64,000 bases of DNA from Candidatus Marinacidobacterales bacterium (lineage in GTDB: Bacteria > Acidobacteriota > Vicinamibacteria > Marinacidobacterales > DATDRI01), in assembly GCA_965226495.1 (NCBI GenBank), contig OZ245365.1, positions 512,001-576,000 on the forward strand, in the 5' to 3' direction. Below, in pieces: positions 980 through 36,871 of the stretch. Below the pieces are notes generated by a model. The model searched no databases. It was given only the letters and a program-made list of their open reading frames with translations, and was not told the origin of the DNA. Every line of letters begins with the position of its first letter. The stretch's first letter is position 1. The translations under genes and the position numbers were made by a program.

Positions 980-1124
980 CTCATTGGTTTCAACAGAGGG
1001 TTTGAGACCCGGGTATGCCATCTCAATTCGTGGCGTGGCGTGCGGCAGCGGGTGTTCTCCATGGGTGTGCCAGCAATCGATTTGAACTAGGCGACGGCCG
1101 CTGCACCGAATGACGTGCGCGGTT

Positions 1125-1601
1125 TTATTTGAACAACCCCACCACGAGCACGACCACGCAAGCAATCACGAGTCCCGATCCAATCACTGCCAGCCCTTGA
1201 GTCACGCTGCTGAACGCGAGAGTCTGAGCCAGCACTCCCAGCGTAAAGACCAGGCTCCCCACGATGAAGAGCCGGGCGATGAGCAGCTTCCTCCCGTCAT
1301 CCCAGCCGATCCGGTGCGCGAAGAGGGGAATGATGAGCGCCAAGGTGCCGAGCTCGATGACGTGGGCGTGGAAGCTCACCTCGCGTATGTACTCGAAGGA
1401 GTTAGCGCGGAACGTCTCTATGCTCTCGGAAACGCCGGCTTGGTTACCGCCCGCGGCCTCGAAGAAGGACTGCGCGAAGGCCATGCCCATCGCCACGAGC
1501 GTTTGGTGCTCATCGAAGATTGCGTAGTAGACGCCGAAGATGAGCCCGATGAGCACGAGCAGAAGACCACCCACGATGTAGGTCTTGTTGGCGGATGTCA
1601 T
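1125..1601 (-). CDS. Four-TM membrane protein with HxH motif
   Basis: MTSANKTYIVGGLLLVLIGLIFG...SFHAHVIELGTL. ATG at 1601 overlaps the upstream TGA (ATGA). Confidence 0.75.
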   Translation of the reverse strand: MTSANKTYIVGGLLLVLIGLIFGVYYAIFDEHQTLVAMGMAFAQSFFEAAGGNQAGVSESIETFRANSFEYIREVSFHAHVIELGTLALIIPLFAHRIGWDDGRKLLIARLFIVGSLVFTLGVLAQTLAFSSVTQGLAVIGSGLVIACVVVLVVGLFK

Positions 1602-2692
1602 GACGTTCCTCCCCGGGCGTCGACGGCACCGGTATGTCGGATGACGCCCAACAGCATGCCCAAGAGCGCGGTGATCACGATGAATCCCGCGAGGTCGGCA
1701 ACGGCTCCGCCGTAAAGGCCCGACCAAAGCTCCGACTGCACCGCCACGGGCAGGAGAAAGCCGCCTACGACTAGCCACCGTGCCCAACGGAGCTTCCACT
1801 TGTCGGACAAGAAGACGAAACGCTGGGCGAATGCCAGGAGGATCGCCATCAGTCCGAACGCGATGAAATGGGCGTGGGTCGCGATGTAGATGGCCTTTTC
1901 GGCCTGGAGCCAATTGTAGTCGTGCACCGCTTGCGTGGCTGCGGGAACGTCATTGGCCATGGCGTGGGTGAGCGAGGCCTGCAACAAGCTCACATCCTTC
2001 TCCGCGTTGTCGTAAAGGCCGGTCGCCGCGTAGTAGGCGCCGTTGAGCAACCCAATCAGAATCAGCACCGCTCCCCATCGAAGCAGAAAACTCTTTGCGG
2101 GCTCGGCTTCATCGTCCTTGGCTACGGCTTCCACCTCGCCCTTACATCGGAAGTGACGGACCGCACCCGCGAATTGGGCGACCACGCCGACGATGAAGAC
2201 CGCGCCGGCGGTGTCGGCCACGATGCTTCCCCAGCCGATGGTCTCGAAGGGAGATTTCCAGAGGCCCAAGTAATAGATGGCGAAGACGCCAACCGGGAGG
2301 ATGAAAGAGGACGCCACCAGAACGATCGCCCATCTTCTTTTCCACGTCGGCCCGATGGCGATATAGGGCTGGACGAGCCCCAGAATCAGGCACAGATACG
2401 CGAGCTGGATCCAGTGCGTGTGGGTGTCCTTCTTGGTGCCCATGTTCTCGAGCATCTTGCCGATTCTCTCCATCGATCCGCCGATGGGCTCGCTGTTGCC
2501 AGCCGCCACAGCTTTTACGGCGTTCAGCATCTCCGCCTCGATGGTCATGCCGCTCTGGTGCAGGTGAAAGATCGCGAAGTATTCCCCGAAGAACATGCCG
2601 ACGATCGCGATCAGGATTCCACCCAAGATGAGGATGCGTGCGGGGGACAGCGGCTCGTTGAGAGTCAGCCTTTCGGATACGCCTCCTTGCAT
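1598..2692 (-). CDS. Integral membrane protein with two tandem four-TM HxH units
   Basis: About eight hydrophobic segments; DTHTHWIQLAYL and ATHAHFIAFGLM; GGAGG RBS before ATG 2692. Confidence 0.8.
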   Translation of the reverse strand: MQGGVSERLTLNEPLSPARILILGGILIAIVGMFFGEYFAIFHLHQSGMTIEAEMLNAVKAVAAGNSEPIGGSMERIGKMLENMGTKKDTHTHWIQLAYLCLILGLVQPYIAIGPTWKRRWAIVLVASSFILPVGVFAIYYLGLWKSPFETIGWGSIVADTAGAVFIVGVVAQFAGAVRHFRCKGEVEAVAKDDEAEPAKSFLLRWGAVLILIGLLNGAYYAATGLYDNAEKDVSLLQASLTHAMANDVPAATQAVHDYNWLQAEKAIYIATHAHFIAFGLMAILLAFAQRFVFLSDKWKLRWARWLVVGGFLLPVAVQSELWSGLYGGAVADLAGFIVITALLGMLLGVIRHTGAVDARGGTS

Positions 2693-2753
2693 GGACACCT
2701 CCTACGCTGGGGCTTCTATATCATCTTTTGTGCGACCGATCATGACTACCTGG

Positions 2754-3239
2754 TCACCGGTCGATGGCCTGCTGGAACCTTTCTGGCTCCTGGCTGCCGA
2801 GGAGCAGCCGCCGCGTACGGAAGAACAAGAAGCGTGCGTCTTTTGTCAAAATCAGCAAGAGCCTCCGGTTTCCTTTCATGGAATAGACTCCGGTGAACTC
2901 TCCTCGAAACTTTCCGCCACGAATTCCCCAACCTCCGAACTCACGAATCGGTCGATAGGTAACGACCTCGGTGCTTTCGACATCCTCGAGCGGTACGACT
3001 CGCTTCGGCCACCCCACGTACCCGAAACGGATCCGGATCGTTTCCTCCTCGACTTCGAACACCAGACGCCCGAAGAGGAGGGGGATGGCGATGAGCATCG
3101 CGCCGATCGGAAGAAGGACCAACAAAACACGTGGCTCACCCGGGTCGGCCAAGGTGACCACGAAGACCACGAGCATCGCAAGGTAAGCGATCTTCACGAT
3201 GGGATGGACCGAAACCTGCTCTTCGTATCGATAGGCCAT
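2754..3239 (-). CDS. Hypothetical membrane protein (2 TM + bacterial PH-like domain)
   Basis: Two N-terminal TM helices, then IRIRFG...EFGGWGIR motif. Confidence 0.7.
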   Translation of the reverse strand: MAYRYEEQVSVHPIVKIAYLAMLVVFVVTLADPGEPRVLLVLLPIGAMLIAIPLLFGRLVFEVEEETIRIRFGYVGWPKRVVPLEDVESTEVVTYRPIREFGGWGIRGGKFRGEFTGVYSMKGNRRLLLILTKDARFLFFRTRRLLLGSQEPERFQQAIDR

Positions 3240-3342
3240 AGAACTCGTGGCGCTTGAGCCGGCGCGCCTGGCGGGAGTTTACCATTTCTCCTTGACGCCT
3301 CCGAGATCGCCAAAGTAGTGTAGTGACCCTAAAGGAGAGGAA

Positions 3343-3738
3343 ATGGAAAAGACTCAGGTCAACCCGTGGAAGTGGCAGGACCAATACGGTTTCTCTCAGT
3401 GTTGGAAAGTAGACGGTGCCAAGTCACTCATCGTCGTGTCCGGGCAATCGAGCATGTCGGCGGACGGCGCGGTTCTACACCCTGGGGATTTCAAGGCCCA
3501 GGCACGGCTGACGTTCGAGAACATGCACACCGTTTTGGAACACTCCGGTGCGTCGCTCGAGGATGTCGTGAAGCTGGGCGCGTACTTCGTCGGCATCGAC
3601 ATGCAGAAGTTAATGGATTACGGCGCCGTGCAAGCGGAGTTCTTCAAGGGCAAGATGCCGGCGCAGACCTTGGTGGGCGTGGCACAGCTGGCTCTGCCCG
3701 ACATGATGCTCGAGGTAGAGGCATTCGCCGTCGTCTAA
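3343..3738 (+). CDS. RidA/YjgF family protein
   Basis: VSGQ...QARLTFENM...LEDVVKL...PAQTLVGVAQLALPDMMLEVEA; AAGGAGAGG RBS. Confidence 0.9.
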   Translation: MEKTQVNPWKWQDQYGFSQCWKVDGAKSLIVVSGQSSMSADGAVLHPGDFKAQARLTFENMHTVLEHSGASLEDVVKLGAYFVGIDMQKLMDYGAVQAEFFKGKMPAQTLVGVAQLALPDMMLEVEAFAVV

Positions 3739-3852
3739 GCCCCTCGATGGGCACCGCCGCCCGCAGATCGCATCCGCCGGACACGATGAGCAGATCTCCC
3801 ATTTTGCCTCCTTAGACTTTCTTGTGCTACGTTCACTTCGGGTCCAACCCGC

Positions 3853-4385
3853 ATGGAAGACATTTACAACTACGTGAACGGCCGCCTAGATCCGGGCGTT
3901 ACCTCGAGAATGTCGAGCCGGCAACGGGACAGGTGTACTCGAGGATTCCCGATTCCGACAAGGAAGATTTGAACGAGGCCATCGCCGCGGCACAAGCTTT
4001 TCCCGTTTGGAGCGAGACGCCGTCGATGGAGCGCAGCAGGGTGATGCTCCACATCGCGTAGCGGATCGAGGCGGTGAGCGAAGAGTTGGTCCGCGCGGAG
4101 TCCATCGATACGGGCAAGCCGATCTCTCTGGCCCGCGACGTCGACGTTCCCAGAGCGTCATCCAATCTCCGGTTTTTCGCTGGTGCGGCGACGCAGTTTT
4201 TCAGCGAGTCGCATGCGATGGAAGGCGGAGCCATCAACTACACGTTGCGCTAACCCCACGGGGTGGTGGCGTGCATTTCGCCCTGGAACCTGCCCCTCTA
4301 TCTGCTGACATGGAAGGTGGCGCCGGCTCTCGCCGCGGGTAACTGCGTGATTGCCAAGCCGTCCGAGCTAACACCCATGACGGCT
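3853..4385 (+). pseudogene. Aldehyde dehydrogenase (muconic semialdehyde dehydrogenase-like), broken and 3'-truncated
   Basis: [51 protein letters not shown]. Frameshift near 3880, TAG 4059-4061, TAA 4251-4253; ends at the IS remnant. Confidence 0.88.
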
Positions 4386-4600
4386 GTCGAGAATCTTTTC
4401 TTCAGGTACAGGCGCACGCTGGGCGACAGCCTTCGTGCGTGCGGCTACGAATCCCAGAAGCGCGAGGCGATGATCGGGTCGCAACGTATTGAACCGGATG
4501 GCTGAGCTGGGCAAGCCCTGAGTCCCAAGCGATCGTCGAGGAGTAAATTGAACCGCCGAAAGTGAAGACCTGCGCCCGCACCGATTCATGCAACAACGCC
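4386..4600 (+). mobile_element. IS5 family (IS903 group) remnant: transposase C-terminus plus right inverted repeat
   Basis: [18 protein letters not shown]...QKREAMIG / [12 protein letters not shown]. 4583-4600 reads GGCGTTGTTGCATGAATC on the minus strand, resembling the IS903 IR GGCTTTGTTGAATAAATC. Confidence 0.75.
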
Positions 4601-4672
4601 CCTCGGAGGCCCCACACGTGATAAAAGAGAGGCCGAGTCGCGCGTCTCTATTTCATGGCAGGAGACACACAC

Positions 4673-5692
4673 ATGGGCGAGGAAAAAGGGAAGCTAACCC
4701 TCGAGGAGTTCGTGACCAGCCTCTACCATGGGGCGCGGGCGGACAATACCTTCAAGTTCCTCTACGGACAGCCGGAAGAAAAGCTTGACGCCTTTTTTCA
4801 AAAGCTTCTCCGGCAAGTGGTGGGAGCCGTCGATAGCGGTGACAGCGGGGCCTTAGGGGACTTTCTGCAGCAATCTCAGGTCGGCGGTTACACGTTTCCA
4901 CTCGACAAGCCTCCCTTCTGGGCTCCCAAGGTGCCGCAGGCCCCGGTCCCACTCGCCCGACTACGCAAGCCACTCTCGGAGGCGAGAGTCGCCTTGTTCT
5001 CGAGCGCGGCGGCGCGTCTCCCCGAGCAACCGACATTTCTGCCCGACGGGTTGGATCTGCCGGCCGCGACTCGGGACCCGATGAAATCGTTCGAACGATT
5101 TCCGAGCCTGCGCGAGATTCCGGCCGGTACCAATCCCGCACGCCTGGTCTTCGAGCACATCGCCTACGATTTGAACGCGGCGCAGCAAGACCCCAACGTC
5201 GTCTTTCCGCTGGATCGCTTCCGTACGCTTGCCGAGCAAGGTGTCATCAAGGTGGCGCCCAAGGCGTACTCCTACAAAGGGCTTTCCAACGTGCAGCACC
5301 TGGTCGAGACCACGGGGCCGGAATGGGCGGAGAAGGTGCGAGCGGACGGCGCGGATGCGGTGCTGTTGGTGCCCGGCTGACCCGTTTGTCACCTGTCCGT
5401 GGGACAGCTCGCGCGCGCCATCGAGACTAGTGGCATACCTACCGTGACGTTGTACATCGAAGCCTGGGAACCGATGGCCCGCTTGGTCCGTCCGCCTCGG
5501 GTGGTCACGACGCGATTCTTGCAAGGTCGGATCGTTGGCCCGCCGAATCGTAAGAACACCCAGCTGCGCGTTCTCGGGGACGCGTTGGAGTTCCTCAAGA
5601 ACGCCACCATGGACAACTGGTTGCTCCCGCTTCCTTTTACCTGGTCCGAAGCGCTTCGGGAGGGGACGCCAAGAAACGCCGGTCTAATTTAG
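4673..5692 (+). CDS. GrdB/PrdB-like reductase selenoprotein B (Sec at TGA 5378-5380)
   Basis: Track ORFs 4655-5380 and 5399-5692 are in one frame. Readthrough gives DAVLLVPG-U-PVCHLSVGQLARAIETSGIPTV. Also LRKPLSEARVAL and QDPNVVFPLDR. GGAG RBS before ATG 4673. Confidence 0.88.
5393..5407 (+). promoter_or_regulatory. Candidate SECIS hairpin
   Basis: CTGTCC-GTG-GGACAG; the loop G lies 19 nt after the UGA. Confidence 0.7.
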
Positions 5693-5714
5693 GCACTAGG
5701 GAGGAGTAAGAACG

Positions 5715-6776
5715 ATGGGAAGATCATCGGTCATTTTGGAGAGTCTGCCACTGCCTATGCTCACCGATTTCGCTCAGAAAGCCGATGAGCACGGCTACGA
5801 CACGGTTTGGAAGCCGGAGATCATTTTCTCCGATACATTTGTTCCTTCGACTGCGTTTGCGTTGAAGACGAAACGTGTCCATATCGGCTCGTGCATTGCG
5901 GGCATTTGGGGGCGGAGTCCGGTGGTCACCGCCTTGTCGGCGAGCGCGCTCGCCGAGCTATCGGGCAACCGGCTAATCCTTGGGCTCGGAACGCAGGCGC
6001 GTTCGTACGTCGAAGGTTGGCACGGTTTGTCTTATGACAGACCACTCACTCGTGCTCGAGAGCTCATCACTGTCATTAAGAAGATTCTCTCCGGCGAAGT
6101 CGTATCGTTCGAAGGAAAGACGATGAGCCTCCAGCATTTTCAGCTTGCCCTAACGGGGCCGCCTCCCAAAGTACCCATCTACTTGGCGGCGATTGGGCCC
6201 AAGATGACGCAGCTCGCTGGCGAGATCGCGGACGGGGTGATCGGCTACTTTCAGCCCATCAACTACTTCCGTGACACCTTCCTCAAAAATCTCGAGATCG
6301 GGGCCAAGAAGGCCGGGAGGACGCTCGACGACATAGACATCGTCGTCGGACACCCGGCTTTGGTCTCGGACGATCCGAAGGCGGTGGAGTGGATTAAGCC
6401 GCACGTTGTCATGTTCGCCACCGCCGGCGGCTCCTCGCCGACTTACGCAGGTATGGTGAAGTCAGCCGGTTTCGAGAAAAACCTGGAGGGAATGTTAGCG
6501 GGCATCGCCAACGGGAGCATGGATGAAGCGGCGAGCCACGTGAGCGACGAGATGGTCGAAGCGATGACGCTTTGTGGCACCGCGCAACACGTCGCCGACC
6601 GCATGGACGATTACCATCAGGCGGGCGTGAAGATGACGCTGATGAATCCCGTTCCACCGAAGGCATACTTTCCGCTCTTCGCGGGGCATTTTCCGGAGAC
6701 GATGGAGTTCCCCCAATCGGACGTCGAGGCCTTCGTTCAGAACGTGGACGATATCGTGACCAAGGTGCCCCTGTAA
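5715..6776 (+). CDS. LLM class flavin (possibly F420)-dependent oxidoreductase
   Basis: GYDTVWKPE, RSPVVTA, NRLILGLG, PIYLAAIGPKMTQLAGEIADG. Confidence 0.9.
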   Translation: MGRSSVILESLPLPMLTDFAQKADEHGYDTVWKPEIIFSDTFVPSTAFALKTKRVHIGSCIAGIWGRSPVVTALSASALAELSGNRLILGLGTQARSYVEGWHGLSYDRPLTRARELITVIKKILSGEVVSFEGKTMSLQHFQLALTGPPPKVPIYLAAIGPKMTQLAGEIADGVIGYFQPINYFRDTFLKNLEIGAKKAGRTLDDIDIVVGHPALVSDDPKAVEWIKPHVVMFATAGGSSPTYAGMVKSAGFEKNLEGMLAGIANGSMDEAASHVSDEMVEAMTLCGTAQHVADRMDDYHQAGVKMTLMNPVPPKAYFPLFAGHFPETMEFPQSDVEAFVQNVDDIVTKVPL

Positions 6777-6796: not shown

Positions 6797-7660
6797 CTAA
6801 TGTGATTTGTGCGAACGCCGCGTGCGGGTCGGCGTGCGGGCATGGACTCCCTCGAACCCATAGTCCGTCTTCGCCAAGATGACGTGCGTAGGGCTGACCG
6901 CGTGCTTGTCTTCGAGGTAGGCGTTCAACATGGCCTGACCGGCCAGAATATTGATCTCCCGCGGGAATCCACCAGTGAATTCATATATCGTGTCACCGGC
7001 CTCTTTGGAAAAGACTCGACCGGGTTTTATGCTGCCCGCCGCCTTGAGTCGGTAAGATAGGTACTCAGTCGTCTCCCCTCGTGTCAGTGGTTTGAGCTCA
7101 TAACGCAAGCCGATTCTTTGGCGAAGCTGTCTGAGGCGTGGTCTTCTAAGACGCGTTACCAGCTCGGGCTGCCCCACCAAGCAGATGAGGATCAGCGGTC
7201 GTCCGTCTTCTTCCAAGTTGGACAACAGACGCACCTCCTCGAGAACCGAGTCGGTGAGGAGGTGAGCCTCGTCGAAGAACACAACCGGCCGCCGGCTTTC
7301 ACTCCCGTTGATAGCCAGGAACGTTTGTAGCCTTCGGACCAGTTTCGGCTTTGGCTCTCGGCTCACTGGGTCGAGGCCGAAGCAAACGCCCATCTCCTCC
7401 AAGAGCTCGCGCGGCTTGACGGTATTGTGGCTTATCACCGCAGTCGGTACGTCCGGGGGCGTCTTTTCGAGGATGGCTCTGATGGCGGTGGTTTTTCCTG
7501 TACCGACCTCGCCGGTCAGCAGGAAGAAGGCTTCCCCCATCTCTTGTGCGTAGCGGAAGTGTGCGCAGATCTCTTCTATTTCTTGGCTTGGATAGATGAA
7601 GTCGGATCGAGAGGCCGAGCCGAAAGGGTTCCTCCGAAGGTGAAAATGGGCCTCATGCAT
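6797..7660 (-). CDS. ExeA/GspA family AAA ATPase
   Basis: HFHLRRNPF, LTGEVGTGKTT (Walker A), DEAHLL, LVGQPEL, QLRQRI, TGGFPREIN. Confidence 0.9.
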   Translation of the reverse strand: MHEAHFHLRRNPFGSASRSDFIYPSQEIEEICAHFRYAQEMGEAFFLLTGEVGTGKTTAIRAILEKTPPDVPTAVISHNTVKPRELLEEMGVCFGLDPVSREPKPKLVRRLQTFLAINGSESRRPVVFFDEAHLLTDSVLEEVRLLSNLEEDGRPLILICLVGQPELVTRLRRPRLRQLRQRIGLRYELKPLTRGETTEYLSYRLKAAGSIKPGRVFSKEAGDTIYEFTGGFPREINILAGQAMLNAYLEDKHAVSPTHVILAKTDYGFEGVHARTPTRTRRSHKSH

Positions 7661-7883
7661 CGGGGCCTCGCCTCTCGTTTTCGCTGATTAAAGAGGAGGG
7701 TTTTCGCGGCAATCCTGCGGACAGGATGCCGAATTCTGCCCCCCTCGAAGCTAGTTCGTCTACCTGGGTGGGGCGAAGTTAGCACATCTGAGCCCGCGAG
7801 AAAAGCGCTCGTTCCGCTATCCAGAGATACCCCCAACTGAAAGCCACACGCCGTTCATGGTGACAGTCTTCACTGCGTACGGC

Positions 7884-8408
7884 TCATCGAATCAGGAAGA
7901 CTTCCTCATTGGGGGGCTGAATAAATTCAACACCTTTGTTGGTGATTATCTGAGGGTTTGAAATATTAAAGGCTAGTGGATAACCGGGCCTTTCCTTAAT
8001 ATTTTTATGGACCATATATTCAAAGGCGAAGAGATGATTCTCCTGTATTTTTAAGTGGTGTGTGTATGCTCGAAATGGCCCCATGGACGGGCCTTCTGTT
8101 CTAATATCCCATTCAACTTCCCCGGTATCGATGTTGTTATTGCCCATGCTGTGATTATCAACGGAAAATCCCGGTTTATCAGTATTCGCGAGAACCCTCT
8201 GGAGCATTTCGTAGTCTTTTTCTCCTCTATCGGTGAAAGGCGTATAGATATAGCCAGCCTTTTCCATAGCTTTCAGACGGAGTGCGTCCCGATCGGTCTT
8301 GGCCGTACGCGCCGGCAGTGGGCTGATGGAAACGGCACTCTCCTGCGCATTGACAGCAGGCACTATGAACATCAGAGAAATTAGAAAGCTTGTAAATCGA
8401 GATAACAT
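7884..8408 (-). pseudogene. Signal peptide joined to an apparent M24 peptidase C-terminus (internal deletion); lower GC than flanks
   Basis: MLSRFTSFLISLMFIVPAVNA signal, then DNHSMGN...FAFEYMVH...IITNKGVEF. Only 174 aa. Confidence 0.5.
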
Positions 8409-8422
8409 GACTCCCTCCAAGA

Positions 8423-8872
8423 TCACCTGGATTGGTAGTTCGGCGCATCGATATAGACGAAATCTCTCATGATCTTTTCTTCATCAAAGTAGATGAAGTA
8501 GATCATGTCTCCCGCTTCGAAGATTCGGACGACCGGCCACGTGCGGCCGTTGGTGAGAATCTCGTCCCGTTTCTGGTCTCCCCATTCGGAGACCCATTGG
8601 GCAAGCTCCTCCTCTCCTTCGGGAGAGGCGATGAGAGGGGCCTTCTCTTTGAGGCCCTCGACGACCTGGTATAGCGACGGTTCCTGGTCCAGAACCCCTT
8701 GGAGTCGAGCTTGGTGGAGTGTCATGCGGCGGACGTGGTAACCGTAAACGCCCAAGACCAGGGCGATGATCAGTCCAGCCGCGGCCAAGGCAAGGCCGAA
8801 AGTGCCCGCGAGGACGAGAAGCTTCTTGTTGCGCTCGCGTTCGTCGGTGGCCTTCGGAAGAGCCTCGAACAC
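8423..8872 (-). CDS. Hypothetical single-TM protein
   Basis: 149-aa ORF with one N-terminal TM helix, co-oriented with neighbours. Confidence 0.7.
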   Translation of the reverse strand: MFEALPKATDERERNKKLLVLAGTFGLALAAAGLIIALVLGVYGYHVRRMTLHQARLQGVLDQEPSLYQVVEGLKEKAPLIASPEGEEELAQWVSEWGDQKRDEILTNGRTWPVVRIFEAGDMIYFIYFDEEKIMRDFVYIDAPNYQSR

Positions 8873-8902: not shown

Positions 8903-10180
8903 TCAAGACGTTAGCTCCATCTTCGTCTCGCGAGCCACGCGCTCGACTTCTCGCCAAACACGTAGCAGGTTGCCGCCCCAGAGTTTTTCGATGTCTTCCT
9001 CGGTGTAGCCGCGTCGCACCAGTTCAATGGTAACGTTCAAGGTTTCACTGGCATTGTTCCACCCGTTGATGCCGCCGCCTCCGTCGAAATCGGAGCTGAT
9101 GCCGACATGGTCGATGCCGATGAGCGCGACGGCGTGATCGATGTGGTCGACGAAATCAGAGACGGTGGCCTTGGGCCACTTCTCGTCGAGCTCCACCATC
9201 TTCCTCCGGATCTCTTCCCTCTGTGCGTCGGTGCGGTCACTGCTCGCGCCGGCGTTCCCCATTTCCTCGAACAGCGCCCGCCGCGCAGCGGCTTTTTCGG
9301 GCTGCTTCTTGACGAAACTATCGAGCGCCACCATTTGGATCACGCCGCCGTTCTCCTTGAGTGCAAGCAACTGTTCGTCGTCCATATTACGAGCCACGTC
9401 GGACAACGCTTTCGTGCTCGAGTGCGAGCCGATGACCGGCGCACGGCTAAGCTGGGCCGCTTCGAGCATTGCTTTTTTCGAGATGTGCGAGACGTCGACC
9501 ATGATACCGATCCGATTCATTTCCGCGATGACTTGTTCGCCGAACTCGCTGATGCCGCCATGCTCCTCTTCTGCGTCGCCGAGCCGTTCCCGAGGCGTCG
9601 AGGAGTCGGCGATGTCGTTATGCCCGCCGTGCGCGAGGGTGATGTAGCGTGCTCCGAGCGCATGGTACTTTTCGAGCAAGCTCAAGTCCTTACCGATGAC
9701 GTAGCCGTTCTCGATACCGATACAGGCAACGAGCTTGCCGTCGGCGTGGATTTGCTCGACTTCGTCCGCGGTATAGGCAAGCTCGATCTCGTCCGGATAC
9801 ATCTCTTCCGTCATGCGGTGGATAGCGTCGAATTTCACCATCGCATCGGCCTTCGCTTTTTCGTAGTTCTCGGCAGTCCTCTCCGTCTGGCCGACGTAGA
9901 CGATGAAAAAGCCCGCGTCGAGCCCGCCTTCCTTCATTTTCGGGATGTCCACCTGTCGTTCCCCACGGACTCCGGGGTCGACTTCGGCGGTCGCGAAGTT
10001 CTCGGGAATATCGTCGTGGGTATCGATGGTGAGGACGCGCTCGTGAATCGCCTTGGCCTTGGCGACGATTTCCTCCTCGGTGAGTTCTTGGACGTCACCC
10101 GTGGTGGTGGATTCTTGGGAACCGCTTTCACACGCGACAACCGCGAGGATGAAGCTTAGAAGAAAGGCTTTATGCAGCAT
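8903..10180 (-). CDS. Membrane dipeptidase (peptidase M19), lipoprotein
   Basis: IDTHDD, GIENG, YITLAH, MVDVSH, SHSS, HVGISSDFDGGGG, KLWGGN; lipobox VVAC; AAGGGAG RBS. Confidence 0.92.
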   Translation of the reverse strand: MLHKAFLLSFILAVVACESGSQESTTTGDVQELTEEEIVAKAKAIHERVLTIDTHDDIPENFATAEVDPGVRGERQVDIPKMKEGGLDAGFFIVYVGQTERTAENYEKAKADAMVKFDAIHRMTEEMYPDEIELAYTADEVEQIHADGKLVACIGIENGYVIGKDLSLLEKYHALGARYITLAHGGHNDIADSSTPRERLGDAEEEHGGISEFGEQVIAEMNRIGIMVDVSHISKKAMLEAAQLSRAPVIGSHSSTKALSDVARNMDDEQLLALKENGGVIQMVALDSFVKKQPEKAAARRALFEEMGNAGASSDRTDAQREEIRRKMVELDEKWPKATVSDFVDHIDHAVALIGIDHVGISSDFDGGGGINGWNNASETLNVTIELVRRGYTEEDIEKLWGGNLLRVWREVERVARETKMELTS

Positions 10181-10199
10181 GAGTGTCTCCCTTTTATCG

Positions 10200-10240
10200 G
10201 AGGCCTGGGGCCCCACCCCCAGGCCTCGCGCTTCGTCGGC
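10200..10240. repeat. REP-like hairpin element, copy 1
   Basis: GAGGCCTGGGG-CCCCAC-CCCCAGGCCTC followed by ..TTCGTCGGCG; related copy at 18538. Confidence 0.65.
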
Positions 10241-10375
10241 GGGCGACTGCGCGCGGGCTGAAGGCTCCGACCGAAGGCGCGCCGATTCTAAAGCCGGAAT
10301 CACGCCACTGCAAGTCGGGCGACTTGAGAAAGAGAGCCAAAACCTCTAAGTTATAGTGCTTCAAAGGGAGTACGC

Positions 10376-11647
10376 ATGCCGAATCAAGTTGACAGCAAGC
10401 TCGTCGCAAAGGCAGTGGACAAGATCGATCGGTCCCGACTGGTCGACCTGGTGGTTGAGCTCACCAACGTCCCGAGCCCGACCGGTCACGAGGCCGAGGT
10501 GGCCCACACGTTTCACGAGGTTCTGGGAGGGGCGGGGTTTCGCCCGACTCTCCAGCCCATCGGGGACGGTCGTTACAACGCCATCGGGATTCTAGAAGGA
10601 GCCGGCGGTGGCAAGTCTTTGCTGTTCAACGGCCATCTCGACACGTCTTTCGGTGCGGAGTTGGCCGACCGCGGCATCGGTTACCGGACCGAGGCCACCA
10701 TCGTCGATGACGAGTGGATTTACGGCATGGGCTCGTTCAACATGAAGAGCGCTCTAGCTGCTTATACTGTTGCATCCCAGGCGATCCAGGCGGCGGGCAT
10801 TCGTCTCGCTGGAGACATCGTGATCGCGGGCGTGGCCGGTGAGATCGAGAAAGCCCCCACTGGCGAGTACGACGACCCCAAGTACCAGGGTTACGGTGTG
10901 GGCACGAAGTTCGCCATTACCCATGGCGCGGCGGCCGATTATTGCATCCTGGGAGAGCCCACGAACATGAAGGTCATCCCGCGTCATTGCGGGACGACCT
11001 GGCTCAAGATCAAGATTCCGGGCGTTTTGATCCATACCGCCTGGAGCGAGCTCGAGCAGAACGCCATCCTCCATGCCGGACTCGTGCTGAGCGCCCTCAA
11101 CGAATGGATCGACCAATATCGCGCGAAACATGCGATCGGCGAATTTCGACCCAAGGTCAATATCGCGGCGATTGAAGGAGGCTGGCCCTGGCGGGGAGCG
11201 CGGTCACCGGACTCTTGTTCGATCTACATGGACGTGCGTACGGTGCCTGGTGTTTGGCCAGTGGAGGTTTATCGCGAGGTCAGAGAGGTTATTCGAGCGT
11301 TGGTGAAGAAGCACTCGAAGCTCGAGGGTACGATTGTCGACCTTTACGTATCGGCTCCCGGAACTTCCATCCCTGATGACCACGAACTGATCCAAACGGT
11401 GGTTCAGGCGCATACCGATCAGCTCGGCAAGGCGCCGGAGCTCGGAATCGAGAACTGGTATAGCGATGCCGCGCACATGAACCGCTACGGGATCCCGACC
11501 GTGAACTACGGCTCCGCAGGACGGATCCGGACCGGCGGCGGGGGCTTCTCGACTCATCAAGGGGAGCACGTCCATATCGGCGATCTCTACGACATCGTCA
11601 AGGTTTACATCCAAGCCGCGATGTCTCTCTGCGGCGTCGCAAGCTAA
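10376..11647 (+). CDS. M20 family (ArgE/DapE-like) metallo-hydrolase
   Basis: VPSPTGHE, LLFNGHLDT, IYGMGSFNMKSA, ILGEPT, YSDA, GIPTVNYG. Confidence 0.88.
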   Translation: MPNQVDSKLVAKAVDKIDRSRLVDLVVELTNVPSPTGHEAEVAHTFHEVLGGAGFRPTLQPIGDGRYNAIGILEGAGGGKSLLFNGHLDTSFGAELADRGIGYRTEATIVDDEWIYGMGSFNMKSALAAYTVASQAIQAAGIRLAGDIVIAGVAGEIEKAPTGEYDDPKYQGYGVGTKFAITHGAAADYCILGEPTNMKVIPRHCGTTWLKIKIPGVLIHTAWSELEQNAILHAGLVLSALNEWIDQYRAKHAIGEFRPKVNIAAIEGGWPWRGARSPDSCSIYMDVRTVPGVWPVEVYREVREVIRALVKKHSKLEGTIVDLYVSAPGTSIPDDHELIQTVVQAHTDQLGKAPELGIENWYSDAAHMNRYGIPTVNYGSAGRIRTGGGGFSTHQGEHVHIGDLYDIVKVYIQAAMSLCGVAS

Positions 11648-11675
11648 ACTCAAGTCCCAGCTTGGGAGGTGTTCT

Positions 11676-13608
11676 ATGACCCGCCAGTCTTGGCTTTATG
11701 GGCTTTCCATGCTGTTCGCTTGCATGCTGGCGTCCTGCGCGCCTGCAGTCGAGGAACGAGTGGTTCCGATCTACGACGCAGCGACTTTTCACGAGACGAC
11801 CACCATTTCGGGTGCCTCGTTTTCTGCCGACGAATCGCAGCTCCTCATGAGCTCCGACGAGTCGGGCATCTTCAACGTGTATGCACAGCCGTTTGCGGGA
11901 GGTGATCCGAAACAGCTGACTCACTCCACCACGGATGCGCATTTCGCAGTCAGTTGGTTCCCCGAAGACGACCGGTTTCTCTTCAGAGCTGACAAAGGTG
12001 GGGACGAACTGGACCACCTGTTCGTGCAGGATGCCGACGGCAACGTAACCGATCTGACTCCCGGCGAGAACCTGAAGGCCTCGTTCGCTGGCTGGAGCAA
12101 GGACCAACAGTCCTTCTAGGTACAGACCAACGAGCGGGATCCAAAGTTCTTCGATGTCTATCGCTACTCGGCGAGCGACTACGAGCGGAGTCTCGTCTTC
12201 CAGAACGAGGACGGTTGGCAGGTTGGCGCGGTGAGCGACGATGGGCGATGGCTCGCGCTCAACCAGGTGATCGACAACGCCGACAGCAATCTCTTCGTGG
12301 CCGATCTCGAGTCGCCGGATGCATCTCCCAATCTGATCACCGAGCACGAGGGGGCCGATTGTTCATCAGCCGATGGGATTCGGTCCCGAGAACCGAAGCC
12401 TCTACTACCTCACCGACGGCTATGGCGAGTTCATGCAGGCGTGGTCCTACGAGCTCGAAAACGGCGAGCATCAGCCGGTGGTCGAGGCGGACTGGGACGT
12501 CATGTATGTCTACTTCTCCGAGGAAGGGCGCTATCGCGTCACCGCGCTCAACGAAGACGCACAAACGGTCTTATCGATCCTGGACACCGAGACCGGAGAG
12601 GATCTCGCTCTGCCCGAGTTGCCGGACGGGGATGTCACCGGGGTTCGGATCTCGCGTAGCGAAGAACGTATGACGTTTTACGTGAATAGCGATACATCTC
12701 CTTCGAATCTCTACGCGTTCGACATCGCGGCCCACGAGCATCGGAGCCTGACCAACACGTTGAATCCCGCCATCGATCGGACGAATTTGGTCGAAGGGGA
12801 CGTCGTTCGGTACGAGAGCTACGACGGGCTGAAGATTCCATCGGTGCTCTATCGTCCGCATCAAGCCTCTCCCGCAGCACCCGTTCCGGCCATGGTCTGG
12901 GTCCACGGCGGGCCGGGTGGGCAGAGTCGGAAGGGCTACCGCGCGACGATTCAGCATCTTGCGAATCACGGCTATGCGGTCCTCGCCGTCAACAACCGTG
13001 GCTCGTCCGGCTACGGGAAAACGTTCTACCACTTGGACGATAAGAAACATGGCGAGGTGGATCTACAGGACGTTGTCTGGTCGCGGAAGTATCTCGAGTC
13101 ACTCGACTGGGTGGACGGCACCCGCGTCGGCATCATCGGCGGCAGCTACGGTGGCTATATGGTCGCCGCCGCCCTTGCCTTCGAGCCCGAGGTCTTCGAC
13201 GTTGGGGTGGACATCTTCGGAGTGACCAACTGGGTCCGGACGATCAAGAGCATTCCGCCCTGGTGGACGGCCCAGAAGGACCGGCTCTACGCGGAGCTTG
13301 GGAATCCGTATGAGGAGGAAGAGCGACTCCGCGGGATTTCTCCTTTGTTTCATGCCGGCAACATTACGAAGCCGCTCCTCGTCGTTCAAGGGGCGAACGA
13401 CCCTCGGGTCCTCCAGGTGGAGAGCGATGAGCTCGTCGCCGCGGTCGAGGCGAACGGCATCCCGGTGGAGTACATCATTTTTCCGGACGAAGGGCATGGT
13501 TTCGACAACAAGGCCAACCGCGTCACTGCCTCCGACCGTTACGTGGCTTTCTTGGACAAATACTTGAAGGGCGAGGGCGCCGAGTCTTCCGCGCCTGCCA
13601 CAGAGTAA
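11676..13608 (+). pseudogene. S9 family (prolyl oligopeptidase-like) lipoprotein, interrupted
   Basis: VHGGPGGQ, GGSYGG, QGANDPRV, DEGHGF. In-frame TAG at 12117-12119 and a frameshift near 12360. Confidence 0.88.
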
Positions 13609-15288: not shown

Positions 15289-16485
15289 ATGAACACCGGA
15301 GTATCGCCGGATCAAATCTGGATAAGTGATCTGAACAAGGACGAGGAGATTCAGTCGCCTTTCGACCGCACGACCCCCGTCCGCTTTTACGACACCACGT
15401 TGCGGGACGGCGAGCAGACGGTGGGTGTGGTCTTCACGCCGGATGAAAAGGTCGAGATCGCCCGAAAGCTCTCAGACCTCAAGGTCGGCCGTATCGAAGC
15501 GGGGTTCCCGAGGGTCTCCGAGGCGGACACGGAAGCGGTGAAGCGCATCGCGGAGGCTGGACTGGAATCGGAGATCTATGGATTTTCACGGGCGGTGATC
15601 CAAGATCTGGATGCCCTCATTGAGCTCGGGCTGAAGGGGACCGTCATCGAGATCTCCACCAGTGACATCAAGATGAAGGCGTATGGTTTCACGCGCGAAA
15701 AGGTTATCCAACGCGCGACAGACGCCATCAAGCACGCCCGTGCACACGACATGAAGGTTACCTTTTTTCCGGTAGACAGCACGCGGAGCGATCTTGCGTT
15801 CTTGCGCGACGTCTACGCGGCCGCGATCGACGCCGGAGCAGAAGAAGTCGCCATTGTTGACACCATCGGGGCTTGCTCCCCGGAAGCAGTGGAAACGCTA
15901 GTACGCGTAGTGCGGAGTTGGGTGGGGCCGGACATTCCGGTCCACTTTCATGGGCACGACGACTTCGGCCTGGCGACGGCATCCGCCATTGCCGCGGTGA
16001 GGGGTGGTGCTCGCTGGATACAAGGCACTATTAACGGAATGGGCGAGCGCGCCGGCAATGCCGACATCGTGGAAGTCGCCTTGGCACTCCAATGTCTTTA
16101 CAACGTTCCCGTCGAGCTGGACCTGAAGAAAGCTCGGGAAGTCTCGCAAGTCGTGCAGAAGGCCGGAGGTTATCGTGTCGATAGTTGGAAGCCGGCGGTC
16201 GGCGAGAATCTCTTTGTGCGTGAAAGCGGGGCGGTGGCCAGCCAGTTCCATATCCCCGAAGCCATCGAGCCATACTCGTCCGACATCGTGTCCGCAGATC
16301 GGAAGATCGTACTGGGCAAGAAGAGCGGCGTCGCCAGCGTCCAGCTGAAGGTGAAGGAGCTGGGACTCGATGTCCCCGAGGATAAAATCGCCCCGATTTT
16401 GGCCGAGGTCAAGAGCCAAGGAACCCAAAAGGGTCGACTGATTACGGACGACGAGTTTAGAAAGGTAGTCCAAGAGCTGTCATGA
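15289..16485 (+). CDS. Homocitrate/isopropylmalate synthase-like DRE-TIM enzyme (no regulatory domain)
   Basis: YDTTLRDGEQ, IEAGFP, DTIG, HGHDDFGLA, NGMGERAGNA, LGKKSG. Confidence 0.88.
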   Translation: MNTGVSPDQIWISDLNKDEEIQSPFDRTTPVRFYDTTLRDGEQTVGVVFTPDEKVEIARKLSDLKVGRIEAGFPRVSEADTEAVKRIAEAGLESEIYGFSRAVIQDLDALIELGLKGTVIEISTSDIKMKAYGFTREKVIQRATDAIKHARAHDMKVTFFPVDSTRSDLAFLRDVYAAAIDAGAEEVAIVDTIGACSPEAVETLVRVVRSWVGPDIPVHFHGHDDFGLATASAIAAVRGGARWIQGTINGMGERAGNADIVEVALALQCLYNVPVELDLKKAREVSQVVQKAGGYRVDSWKPAVGENLFVRESGAVASQFHIPEAIEPYSSDIVSADRKIVLGKKSGVASVQLKVKELGLDVPEDKIAPILAEVKSQGTQKGRLITDDEFRKVVQELS

Positions 16486-17549
16486 TGAGCGTGAAAGTAG
16501 GTATCATTTTCAAGTCGTACGAGCCGATGTCCGCCATCCAGGCGTATGCCCGGCAAACCGAGGAGTCGAACCTGAGTGGCGGATTTTGGATCGCGGAGGC
16601 CTACCACTGGTTTCGTAAGTACGGTCACGAGTCGCGCGGGTGTATGGCCACCTTGGCGGCAGCGGTTACCGCGACCAAGAAGATTCCCATCGGCCTCGGT
16701 ATCACCTCCCCATACGTCCGGCATCCGACCGCCCAGGCGTCCGAGGCGGTGGCTTTGGACGAGCTTTCGGGTGGACGGTTCACCATGGGTCTCGGTGCCG
16801 GTAAAGTCGGGATCGTTTATTTGGAGGTCGACCTCAAGAAGCAGTCGCCGGTCAAGGTTCATCGAGAGTCGATCGAGATCTTCCGTGGCATCGTGAAGGG
16901 CGAGAAGTTCACCTACAAAGGAGATCTCTATCAGGCCGATGTTCCGGCCATGGATCGGGCCGGCCGGGGGCTTCGGACGTACATCCCGGTTTACATCGGA
17001 GCGACCGGACCGTACTTGCAGCAGCTTGCTGGCAAGATCGCGGACGGCCTGCTCTTGCCCGGTTTGACCAATCCCGGATTCGTCAGCTACGCCAAAGACA
17101 ACCTCGCCAAGGGTTTCGAAAAAGCGGGCCGCAAAGCGGATCCGGACTATCCGGTGGGCGGCGTGATCCTGGCGGCTTGCTCGCGGGATGGCGCCAAGGC
17201 TCGTGATGCGGCGCGCAGCTACACCGGCACCTACATCATCAACAAGCTTCGGAATATCCAGAACGATGTCATTCTGAGCAGCTCTGGACTGCCGGATGAG
17301 ACCTGGAAACCGTTCCGAGCCGCCATCGAAGCCGGCACTGAGGACAACGTGACCTCGTTGGTGAGCGACGACGTGATGCGAAAGTTTACGGTGATCGCCG
17401 GGACACCCGACGACTGTCTGGAACTCTTGCAGCAACTCGTTGATGCGGGGCTCAATTTGCCGCTCATGGAAGTGGTGGGCGCTAGCCAAGAAGACAACTT
17501 GGAGACCATTCGTCTCTTAGGCGAAGAAGTGGTCCCCAAGCTCAAATAG
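16482..17549 (+). CDS. LLM class flavin-dependent oxidoreductase
   Basis: FWIAE, SPYVRHP, DELSGGRFTMGLG, PVYIGATGP, AGKIADG. Confidence 0.9.
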   Translation: MMSVKVGIIFKSYEPMSAIQAYARQTEESNLSGGFWIAEAYHWFRKYGHESRGCMATLAAAVTATKKIPIGLGITSPYVRHPTAQASEAVALDELSGGRFTMGLGAGKVGIVYLEVDLKKQSPVKVHRESIEIFRGIVKGEKFTYKGDLYQADVPAMDRAGRGLRTYIPVYIGATGPYLQQLAGKIADGLLLPGLTNPGFVSYAKDNLAKGFEKAGRKADPDYPVGGVILAACSRDGAKARDAARSYTGTYIINKLRNIQNDVILSSSGLPDETWKPFRAAIEAGTEDNVTSLVSDDVMRKFTVIAGTPDDCLELLQQLVDAGLNLPLMEVVGASQEDNLETIRLLGEEVVPKLK

Positions 17550-24248: not shown

Positions 24249-25181
24249 ATGAAAGTATGTGTCGTTGGATGTGGCGCGGTGGGAAGTCTATTCGCCGCTC
24301 ATCTGGCACGGCTCGACGACGTCGAGGTGTGGGCCTATGACTTGGACGAACGCCATTGCAGCGCGATCAATTCCGGAGGCTTGCGCTTGTCCGGTCTCGC
24401 CGATTTCACTTCGAAGCTCCAAGCGAGTAGCGATGCCTCCAAGATACCCGCGTGTGATTACGGCATCGTCGCCACCAAGTCGTACCATACGCGAACCGCA
24501 ATCGAGGCGACCGCCAGCATCTTCAAGGACGGTGCGGTCGCTTCGGTTCAAAACGGCGTCGGCAGCGAAGAGATCATCGCCGAGTACGTGCCGCGGGTCA
24601 TTCGAGGGACGACATTCCCGGCCGGTCACATCCTAGAGCCGGGGCACATCCAGCAAGATGCGGTCGGTCAGACCTGGATCGGTCCTTTCGAGCCGAAACC
24701 GGCCACCATGGATGAGGTGGAGCTCCTCGCAGAAGCGCTCACGCGCTCCGGCATGGAAACGCTGGCGATGAAGGATGCCCGGGGCGCGCAATGGACCAAA
24801 CTGGTCTTCAATGCGTCGACCAATCCGATCGGCGCGCTAACGCAACTGACCCACGGTCAAGTCTGCGACCAGAAAGACGTGCGCGCCCTCGTGACCGGAC
24901 TGGTCAAGGAGGCGGTGGCGGTTGCGGACAAGCTAGGCATTACCTTGGACAGCGATCCGGAAAAGCTGATCGATCATGCGCGCGAGGTCGCCTACGATCA
25001 CAAGGCGAGCATGTTGCAGGACGTGCTCGGACGACGCAAGACCGAGATCGAAGCCTTGAACGGCGGGATCGTCGAGTTTGGACGCGAGACCGGTGTGCCG
25101 ACCCCACTCAACGAAGCGATAAGGGCACTCATTCTGGGGCTCGAGGAAGCATGGACACGCGACAAAGGAGAGACTAAATGA
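24249..25181 (+). CDS. Ketopantoate reductase family protein 2
   Basis: VVGCGAVG, ATKS, QNGVG, WTKLVFNASTN, SMLQDV...TEIEALNG. Confidence 0.9.
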   Translation: MKVCVVGCGAVGSLFAAHLARLDDVEVWAYDLDERHCSAINSGGLRLSGLADFTSKLQASSDASKIPACDYGIVATKSYHTRTAIEATASIFKDGAVASVQNGVGSEEIIAEYVPRVIRGTTFPAGHILEPGHIQQDAVGQTWIGPFEPKPATMDEVELLAEALTRSGMETLAMKDARGAQWTKLVFNASTNPIGALTQLTHGQVCDQKDVRALVTGLVKEAVAVADKLGITLDSDPEKLIDHAREVAYDHKASMLQDVLGRRKTEIEALNGGIVEFGRETGVPTPLNEAIRALILGLEEAWTRDKGETK

Positions 25182-26335
25182 CCGACAGGAGCAACCCGTT
25201 TCGGCCGAGCCAGGCAGAGATCGATCGCCGCTACAAGAATGTCCGCGCGGCGATGAAGGCCGCCGACCTCGAAGCCCTGATCGTGAGCGGGAGTGAGTAC
25301 ACCGGTTTCGAAGGCGCCGTTCAATATATGTGCGGTTTCCACATTCTCCATCGATACGCGTATGTGCTGGTGCCCATTGAAGGCGAGCCCATTTGTGTGT
25401 TTCCCCGGGAAGCCACCTGGGTGGGGGATCACTCCAAAACGTTCCTGGACAACCGGGAGTTTCCAGCCATCTGCGGGCAATGGATGGCGGACCACCTGAA
25501 GGGAAAAGGCATCAAGCGCGTGGGCGTCTTCGGCTACAACTTCATCATGAACGTTCGCGACTACCGCGCGCTGGTCGACACCGGACTCGAGGTCGTCGAC
25601 TTCGACGAGCCTTTCGATCTCGCCCGGGCGCAGAAGAGCGAGGAGGAGCTCAAATCCGTGCGCAACTCGATGGATATCAACAAGGGCGCGGTCCTGGCCG
25701 TCATCAAGGCCTACCAGCCTGGCAAGAGCGAGGCCGAGCTGATGGCGGTGGCCGAGCATGCCTTCGCGCAACGAGGGACGGCGCGATCGACCATGAACAT
25801 GGTTCTTACCGGCCCCAACGGGTCGATCCATCCGCAGATGGTCTTTGCCGACCCGCAACGCAAAGTTCAGGATAGCGATGGCCTCCTCTATGGTCTGGAG
25901 GGGGCGGGTCAGGGCGGTCACTGGGTCGAGTTTTCTCGTGTGATCGCGCCGAAGGGGCTCGACGACATGACCAAGCGTTTGCTGGAAGCCTATCAGGAGT
26001 ACGATGAGCTCCTGTTGACACACCTCAAGGAGGGCGCAACCGCCGAGCACGTTCACACCGAAACCGTGAAACCCTTTACAAAGCTCGGCCTGCGCTTTGG
26101 GCATGTCTCGGGACATTCGATCGGGATGACGATGATCGAAGCGCCCCGCATTGGCGAGGGGTCGGAATTCCCTCTACCGGAGAACATGGTTGTCTCGATG
26201 CATCCGCACGTCATGACCGAAGATCGCAAGCATTGTTTTTATATGCAGGATACCTACCGCGTCGGGAAGGACAAGGGGGAGCGTCTGTCGTGCGTGCCGA
26301 TGCGGTTTTATGACGGAACGGAATCGGAACTCTAG
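25178..26335 (+). CDS. M24 (Xaa-Pro peptidase/creatinase fold) protein
   Basis: Creatinase-like N-terminus, RAQKSEEE, GHSIG, ENMVVSMHPH. Confidence 0.85.
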   Translation: MTDRSNPFRPSQAEIDRRYKNVRAAMKAADLEALIVSGSEYTGFEGAVQYMCGFHILHRYAYVLVPIEGEPICVFPREATWVGDHSKTFLDNREFPAICGQWMADHLKGKGIKRVGVFGYNFIMNVRDYRALVDTGLEVVDFDEPFDLARAQKSEEELKSVRNSMDINKGAVLAVIKAYQPGKSEAELMAVAEHAFAQRGTARSTMNMVLTGPNGSIHPQMVFADPQRKVQDSDGLLYGLEGAGQGGHWVEFSRVIAPKGLDDMTKRLLEAYQEYDELLLTHLKEGATAEHVHTETVKPFTKLGLRFGHVSGHSIGMTMIEAPRIGEGSEFPLPENMVVSMHPHVMTEDRKHCFYMQDTYRVGKDKGERLSCVPMRFYDGTESEL

Positions 26336-36390: not shown

Positions 36391-36862
36391 GCAAATTCCA
36401 AAAATCCCCGTGGAAGTCAAGGTGAACGGACGGTCTTACCGGCGCGAGGTCGAGCCTCGGATGCTGCTCGTTGAGTTCATCCGCGAGGAGCTGTCTCTGA
36501 CCGGAACCCACATCGGGTGCGAGACCACCTACTGTGGTGCCTGTACCGTGATTCTCGACGGGCTCGCCGTGAAGTCCTGCACGATGTTCGCCGTTCAAGC
36601 TGATGGGGGAGAGATCCTTACTGTGGAAGGACTCGAGAAGGACGGCAAGCTCGATCCGGTCCAGCAGGCCTTCTCCGATGAGCACGGTCTCCAGTGTGGC
36701 TACTGCACCCCGGGCTTCTTGATGTCGGTCACGCATCTGCTCGCCAGAAATTCCAAGCCCGACGAGAAACAAATCCGCAAGGGCATTGCGGGGAACATCT
36801 GCCGTTGCACCGGTTATCAGAACATCATGGCGGCCATCAAGTCGGCCGCCGGCACGCAGTGA
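36383..36862 (+). CDS. (2Fe-2S) subunit (CoxS-like)
   Basis: GCETTYCGACT, KSC, QCGYCTPG, NICRCTGY. Confidence 0.95.
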   Translation: MSEQIPKIPVEVKVNGRSYRREVEPRMLLVEFIREELSLTGTHIGCETTYCGACTVILDGLAVKSCTMFAVQADGGEILTVEGLEKDGKLDPVQQAFSDEHGLQCGYCTPGFLMSVTHLLARNSKPDEKQIRKGIAGNICRCTGYQNIMAAIKSAAGTQ

Positions 36863-36871
36863 GGACACGTC

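Follow-up and report, generated by a model that had tools for sequence, protein, structure and literature searches.

A stand-alone PrdB-like selenoprotein gene with a helical N-terminal domain in a Candidatus Marinacidobacterales bacterium

Relation to PrdB, GrdB, and the catalogued marine family

The PrdB protein of clostridial D-proline reductase carries selenocysteine (Sec, U in one-letter code) in a U-x-x-C motif and belongs to superfamily PF07355. In the text available from two reviews (PMC9312934, PMC13188914), only the clostridial function is described. Here we describe a gene located on the forward strand at positions 4673 to 5692 of a 64,000-nucleotide stretch of DNA (hereafter called the window) from a Candidatus Marinacidobacterales bacterium (contig OZ245365.1). 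The predicted product of this gene belongs to the same superfamily as PrdB, has a Sec residue in U-x-x-C, and finds in PrdB its best profile match. With GrdB, GrdF, and GrdH, which serve as the substrate-specific selenoprotein B in glycine, sarcosine, and betaine reductases, it shares both homology around the Sec site and the UxxC motif. It also carries an additional N-terminal domain, and a gene for a luciferase-like monooxygenase (LLM) lies directly downstream. The host's genus relatives are metagenome-assembled genomes (MAGs) of 'Candidatus Marinacidobacterales' and not Stickland-fermenting clostridia.

Proteins of this general kind have been tabulated before. A Sargasso Sea study records 42 Sec sequences under the name "Proline reductase PrdB" (UxxC; PMC1088965), a Global Ocean Sampling study places PrdB (pfam07355) among its most abundant families with 235 Sec and 110 Cys sequences (PMC2398784), and in the tables of a third report Anaeromyxobacter and Geobacter appear with "proline reductase" selenoproteins (PMC1794560). 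To the extent that these accounts describe it, the marine 'PrdB' family combines pfam07355 membership and a UxxC motif with a location outside any prd or grd operon, and it includes both Sec and Cys forms; the present gene fits this description. The gene is a new member of an already catalogued stand-alone PrdB-like family, and UxxC selenoproteins of the PrdB type are on record from organisms other than Stickland fermenters. Neither the N-terminal domain nor an LLM neighbor is mentioned in the available text of the two marine surveys (PMC1088965, PMC2398784), which also leaves function aside, and no description of the domain or of such a neighbor was found in a limited literature search. A search for papers on GrdB-like or PrdB-like proteins returned work on Synergistota only.

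The stand-alone family is large. A search of representative sequences at a threshold of E <= 1e-3 recovered 748 clusters. Of 401 genomes from the phylum, 107 have a match. One of these 107 is the unpublished genome G089, which is also the source of locus L034; no conclusion depends on G089. Relatives of the protein carry the NCBI name "selenoprotein B family protein."

Profile searches place the protein within the GRDB superfamily while separating it from the characterized reductases. The protein scores 35.2 bits on the Pfam GRDB model (PF07355; cut-off 22), and the alignment pairs its residues 163 to 239 with just the tip of the model (positions 268 to 345). (Residue numbers here and below are counted from an upstream ATG at 4655.) The best NCBIfam match is PrdB (TIGR04483; E 1.6e-33), for which residues 94 to 330 align with profile positions 13 to 234 of 238, at a score of 116.1 bits that is far below the equivalog cut-off of 300. 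The scores for other models of the superfamily are likewise far below their cut-offs, including GrdB (TIGR01917, 30.5 versus 602.2), GrdF (NF040794, 38.2 versus 800), GrdH (NF040795, 52.8 versus 775), and the selenoprotein-B subfamily (TIGR01918, 37.6 versus 65.45). These scores mark the protein as a distant relative of PrdB and GrdB, in line with the GrdB/PrdB-like character given in the original prediction. Genome searches recovered no other GRDB-like gene from this organism.

The placement bears on whether the protein might serve as subunit B of a genuine reductase for D-proline, glycine, sarcosine, or betaine whose partners are encoded elsewhere. The match to PrdB and the UxxC motif, which is given for both PrdB and GrdB in Table 2 of PMC2398784, would favor such an assignment. 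We nevertheless regard it as very improbable, given that all five family cut-offs are missed widely and that the protein differs from the known subunits in several respects. About 90 extra residues precede the region equivalent to PrdB, whereas the approximately 200-residue N-terminal part of GrdB has no match here. In addition, the site reads U-P-V-C-H-L-S and therefore lacks the third Cys of the UxxCxxC motif, which PMC13188914 gives for GrdB. Partner genes are likewise missing from the searches. Pfam scans of the window ORFs (open reading frames) revealed no Grd or Prd partner family, Gly_reductase included, consistent with an earlier remark to this effect, and no match to PF09338 (PrdA/GrdE, which covers the PrdA-type proprotein) or to PF04723 (GrdA) was found in the genome. 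The 14 control genomes were equally silent, so that the sensitivity of the genome-wide search for these two families is not demonstrated.

A structural model is consistent with a single folded protein that has an additional domain relative to PrdB. The AlphaFold2 model, computed from a 70-row alignment, has a mean pLDDT (predicted local distance difference test score) of 93.9 and a pTM (predicted template modeling score) of 0.91. Its N-terminal portion (residues 16 to 79, encoded by 4700 to 4891 on the forward strand) is predicted to form four helices at residues 16 to 24, 31 to 36, 41 to 61, and 65 to 79, with mean pLDDT values of 86 to 97 for 10-residue blocks over residues 11 to 80. The corresponding stretch (EEFVTSLYHGARADNTFKFL...) is aligned in 28 representative clusters, lies outside the PrdB profile, which begins at residue 94, and is without counterpart in canonical PrdB; it has no Pfam match at E <= 0.1. 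The extra domain noted in the original prediction is thus conserved. The remainder of the protein is modeled as a Rossmann-like alpha/beta core (residues 105 to 335, encoded by 4967 to 5659 on the forward strand) that holds the U-x-x-C site, with Sec242 and Cys245 positioned between a strand at residues 235 to 239 and a helix at residues 243 to 258.

We also considered a finer fold assignment, which is not supported because the structure matches are generic. A sequence profile search of the PDB returned nothing relevant (the best match was a designed P-loop protein, E 7e-4), Foldseek found no match in the PDB at E <= 0.001, and VIA-align returned only generic alpha/beta folds (LacI/PBP, SDR) with a best Z of 8.8, which is within the background stated for that tool.

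A selenocysteine codon within a single gene

A direct reading of the window places a TGA codon (5378 to 5380) in frame with both the ATG at 4673 and the TAG at 5690 to 5692, and the gene thereby comprises 339 codons plus the stop. A Shine-Dalgarno-like AGGAG, identified by inspection, lies at 4660 to 4664 on the same strand, 8 nucleotides (nt) before the ATG. Translation with TGA read as U yields ...LLVPG-U-PVCHLSVGQ..., giving a protein of 339 residues from 4673 or 345 residues from the ATG at 4655. The start at 4673 agrees with relatives, wherein the reading frame of the orthologue from genome G001 opens at the aligned codon and that of the database relative P0003 does likewise.

The mechanical ORF list shows this one gene as two ORFs (4655 to 5380 and 5399 to 5692), which leaves room for a pseudogene created by a nonsense mutation, or for two separately translated proteins; many truncated calls in databases look compatible with such an arrangement. 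Several observations make both variants of this explanation highly unlikely. The TGA is kept across distinct lineages, amino acid conservation continues in frame beyond it, and Cys-containing homologues run through the site without interruption. Furthermore, the GTG (5399 to 5401) with which the second ORF is taken to start forms the apical loop in a conserved hairpin described below. The complete read-through protein is also predicted with high confidence to fold as one domain, with a strand before the site and a helix after it. The two ORFs are a single mis-split selenoprotein gene, and its internal TGA encodes Sec (U-P-V-C-H at 5378 to 5380), as supported by the frame, the homologue column, and the model. 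This agrees with the fusion of two ORFs into 339 residues that was originally suggested.

Homologues were compared at the Sec column. In a full-length set (n = 17) drawn from a search of a representative database of 1.84 billion proteins, 13 sequences carry Cys at this column. The subfamily that carries the N-terminal domain is represented by 28 sequences, among which 19 stop exactly one residue before the Sec column, 5 are full-length Cys forms, and 4 are fragments; a stop at this position is the signature of Sec genes cut short by gene callers. At the DNA level, 12 homologous genes in 41 related genomes have TGA (nine genes) or a Cys codon (TGC or TGT, three genes) at the site. The metagenome loci have 37 TGA codons and one TGC among the 38 (of 46) for which the site can be read. 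Cys forms include loci L024 to L026 and L075.

Two variations on this pattern were noted in passing. A sub-group of nine metagenome loci (L079, L084, L087, L090, L099, L101, L102, L104, and L105) read U-P-I-C-Y instead of U-P-x-C-H, such that Tyr replaces the His after the resolving Cys. In the orthologue from G002 (L062/L021), the first 50 residues form an alignment piece of their own that overlaps the main match and in which a TAG is counted, which would indicate that this copy contains a frameshift or that its assembly is faulty.

The organism encodes the apparatus for Sec incorporation. Profile searches of its genome (6.34 Mb in one contig, 94.8% complete) identified selA (570 bits), selB (378 bits), and selD (333 bits), each above its curated cut-off, and the selD gene contains an in-frame TGA of its own. 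Aragorn identified two tRNA-SeC(tca) genes, at G000:C1:173953-174050 and 176351-176447, with 2.3 kb between them. Most bacteria have one tRNA-Sec copy, and two copies would be unusual.

A hairpin resembling a Sec insertion sequence (SECIS) lies at 5388 to 5412 on the forward strand, with arms at 5388 to 5398 and 5402 to 5412 and an apical GUG loop at 5399 to 5401. In bacterial SECIS elements, the loop is expected about 16 to 37 nt from the UGA and contains a G. The hairpin here begins 10 nt 3′ of the UGA, and its apical G-U is located 22 to 23 nt from that codon's U. An alignment of 10 Sec genes from three lineages (three from this genus, three from Ktedonobacteria-type MAG contigs, and one each from G146, G004, G005, and G032) maintains standard pairs in 89% of pair cells, versus 19 to 39% after a shift of the 3′ arm by one to three columns. 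Four of the 10 pairs are changed on both sides (C-G/G-C, U-A/A-U, and A-U/U-A), and the resulting covariation score was reached by none of 500 shuffled alignments. With the covarying codons, the encoded residues change in concert (L..Q, V..H, and Q..L). Among 25 distinct metagenome sequences, 241 of 250 cells are paired, versus 17 to 48% for slid arms.

The hairpin is not formed in the three Cys forms L024 to L026 and is degraded in a fourth. This fourth form, locus L075 (P0004, site 2801) with the sole TGC among the 38 readable metagenome loci, keeps eight of the 10 hairpin pairs, which suggests that its change from Sec to Cys may have been recent. In the selD gene of the organism described here (locus L011, G000:C1:5697808 onward), the UGA is followed by GUCC-AGU-GGAC, whose loop G-U occupies the identical positions 22 to 23.

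Features by which bacterial selenoprotein genes are recognized are found together at this locus, namely an in-frame UGA aligned with a Cys of homologues, a downstream SECIS hairpin with an apical G-U, and a genome that contains selA, selB, selD, and tRNA-Sec. The machinery and the Cys or TGA at the homologous position had both been named as checks in the original prediction, and both are present.

Proposed mechanism and points that weigh on it

The analysis demonstrates the unity of the gene, its Sec codon, the hairpin, the Sec machinery, the family placement, and how the LLM neighbor is distributed. Taken together, we consider it likely that this one gene encodes a Sec protein belonging to GRDB, in its stand-alone PrdB-like branch, made by hairpin-guided UGA decoding and operating through a redox cycle that has no pyruvoyl partner. 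In this view, the UGA at 5378 is decoded as Sec by the SelA, SelB, SelD, and tRNA-Sec of the organism itself, with the hairpin at 5388 to 5412 guiding this decoding. The selenolate of Sec242 would then attack the substrate, Cys245 would resolve the adduct to leave a selenenyl-sulfide, and a reductant from outside the protein would reopen this linkage, in each case without participation of PrdA or GrdE. Cleavage of C-N or C-S bonds is a candidate activity for the protein, and the substrate class, like the redox cycle and the reductant, is inferred.

The genes near relatives offer a lead on the reductant. Neighborhoods were surveyed at 17 loci of the clade with the N-terminal domain, wherein 83 ORFs were scanned with Pfam after selenoprotein-overlapping ORFs and the L095 and L111 duplicates were left out of an initial 106. 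Thiol-redox families occur within about 3.2 kb of the selenoprotein gene in seven of the 17. Specifically, Pyr_redox_2 with its dimerization domain is encoded at L076 and L093, Pyr_redox_2 only, in an ORF cut by the contig end, at L078, glutaredoxin at L083, AhpC/TSA at L090, and DsbD_TM at L081 and L111. Such neighbors are in keeping with a selenenyl-sulfide whose reopening depends on an external reductase, which we offer as a lead only.

A number of points weigh against the proposal. With respect to the protein, the proposed redox cycle draws on the UxxC motif and the established behavior of PrdB and GrdB. Four of the 17 full-length homologues carry D, S, G, or W at the site, and thus not every family member can use the proposed chemistry. 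With respect to the hairpin, single-sequence folding is no more stable than that of shuffled sequences (z +1.19 and +0.76), so that its support is comparative and comes from covariation. One stem position is a C-C mismatch in the present gene, and the pair 15-31 is unpaired in four of the 10 aligned sequences. Finally, the absence of PrdA/GrdE and GrdA genome-wide comes from searches with silent controls in a genome that is not fully complete, and the thiol-redox neighbors belong to related, non-independent loci whose count of seven among 17 has no chance control.

The LLM neighbor and other flanking genes

The LLM gene occupies 5715 to 6776 on the forward strand (Bac_luciferase, E 1.8e-62) and is preceded by a Shine-Dalgarno-like GGAGGAG at 5700 to 5706, read from the sequence. 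Its start lies 22 nt after the TAG of the selenoprotein gene, which ends at 5692 on the same strand, a spacing that had been reported correctly. The top NCBIfam matches are all coenzyme F420 classes (TIGR04024, the Rv3093c and Rv3520c classes, and Mer), with best scores below their cut-offs (TIGR04024, 188.1 versus 345.4; TIGR03841, 183.2 versus 213.65). Because every NCBIfam score falls below its cut-off, the cofactor and substrate of the enzyme are ones that we infer from this likeness. Use of F420 by the LLM is plausible because the genome contains both cofD (307.8 bits versus 257.45) and cofH (461.4 versus 374.1), which lie side by side at 3.79 Mb.

An alternative, in the line of the original prediction, is that the selenoprotein and the F420-type LLM constitute a dedicated two-enzyme module of a new pathway, in which the LLM would supply reducing power from F420H2 or would make or consume the substrate. 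Consistent with this idea are the shared strand, the 22-nt gap, the separate ribosome-binding site of the LLM gene, and the lack of a convincing terminator between the genes (three terminator-like sites versus 2.7 expected). The two genes are adjacent in all four genus-level loci (L018, which is the present locus, L061, L062, and L074), which are 90 to 100% identical to the present one. Moreover, among the 41 related genomes, both the form of the selenoprotein with the N-terminal domain and the orthologue of this LLM (found in three genomes) are confined to genus g1. The presence of cofH and cofD above their cut-offs would also be in keeping with such a module.

However, synteny at 90 to 95% protein identity is expected in any case and is little informative, and the LLM is found next to none of 85 more distant loci. 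This number comprises five loci (L063 to L066 and L031, from Ktedonobacteria, Chloroflexota, and G146) that lack the LLM by tblastn with query P0002; 45 metagenome loci with 39 to 51% identity, many on short contigs, that lack it by the same search; and 35 loci of the broad family with 1.5-kb flanks that lack Bac_luciferase by Pfam, nine of which were also negative by tblastn. Pfam scans of longer flanks did not reveal Bac_luciferase either. An LLM neighbor is, in addition, not a rare item in this genome, as tblastn yields 10 matches at E <= 1e-5, about nine of them besides the gene itself. We therefore judge a dedicated module to be unlikely. Adjacency in four genus loci and in none of 85 distant loci does not support a conserved functional pair, and the coupling of the selenoprotein to an LLM that had been put forward as a feature of the protein is not upheld. 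Rather, the LLM is a genus-specific neighbor and not a defining partner of the family, and in this genus only, the two genes are probably co-transcribed as an operon.

Metatranscriptome contigs from two runs contain pieces of the LLM gene only (X19, 5682 to 5911, and X20, 6354 to 6581, with three differences each), and over the selenoprotein gene the same data provide snippets of 32 to 35 nt from other organisms. X19 includes just 11 nt of the selenoprotein gene and thus does not bridge the two genes. Separately, a second LLM paralogue is located at approximately 16677 to 17477 on the forward strand of the window (genome 528677 to 529477) and is 29% identical to the gene at 5715 by tblastn; an opposite-strand ORF at 16170 to 17489 that coincides with it has no Pfam match.

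Genes near the broader set of relatives reveal few patterns. No recurrent partner was found for the broad family that lacks the N-terminal domain (35 loci with 1.5-kb flanks, 125 ORFs). Peptidases of families S15 or S9 occur at three of these loci (L033, L035, and L022) and cation-efflux genes at two (L034 and L042), and both observations are anecdotal. Amine oxidases flank two further loci, one of the FAD type at L064 and one of the copper type directly upstream at L075. The M19, M20, and S9 genes of the window lie at 8.9 to 13.6 kb. A link of PrdB-like genes to peptide or proline catabolism is weakly hinted at. In full, the window peptidases include an M19 dipeptidase, M20, a member of the S9 prolyl-oligopeptidase family, M24, and S58, at 8903 to 13608, 25178 to 26332, and 29732 to 30487.

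The immediate surroundings of the gene pair vary within the genus. Directly upstream of the selenoprotein gene is a decayed aldehyde dehydrogenase pseudogene (3816 to 4400, forward strand), in which three same-frame pieces align with positions 7 to 61, 64 to 123, and 126 to 170 of the 461-position Aldedh profile before similarity ends, and in-frame stops are present at 4059 to 4061 and 4251 to 4253. The G001 locus has a different gene at this position. Between the LLM and M19 dipeptidase genes, the reverse strand (6797 to 8872) carries an AAA_22/AAA_16 ATPase gene at 6797 to 7660 along with two ORFs that match no Pfam family. In G001, the corresponding region (L061, 10485 to 12025) contains three different small ORFs. 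The spacer thus differs between members of the genus, and it may have arisen by insertion.

Farther away, the forward strand encodes a RidA/L-PSP family protein (3343 to 3738, E 1.4e-21) and an ORF with a PemK/MazF-like toxin domain (650 to 979, E 2.5e-9), and the larger ORFs scanned in 1110 to 3257 have no Pfam match. A set of CoxM/CoxS/CoxG/CoxL-type molybdenum hydroxylase genes (FAD_binding_5, Fer2_2, COXG, and MoCoBD) lies at 35497 to 39741 on the forward strand.

One further possibility is that in this genus the stand-alone PrdB-like selenoprotein has become connected with an F420-dependent LLM, such that F420H2 drives, or supplies a substrate to, a selenol-based reductive cleavage in place of NADH/PrdC or thioredoxin. 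We regard this as a long shot, slightly less probable than the module considered above. If true, it would establish a new link between F420 and Sec chemistry in a bacterium and would provide a first handle on the function of the stand-alone PrdB-like family.

In the annotation, a single Sec-containing gene should replace the two ORF calls, and a "proline/glycine reductase" label is no basis for inferring Stickland fermentation in this organism. What is known of the stand-alone PrdB-like kind itself is unchanged by this gene. The window does add a clean example of that kind, in which the protein carries a helical domain at its N terminus, the SECIS is well supported, and the F420-type LLM neighbor, specific to the genus, may serve as a biochemical lead.

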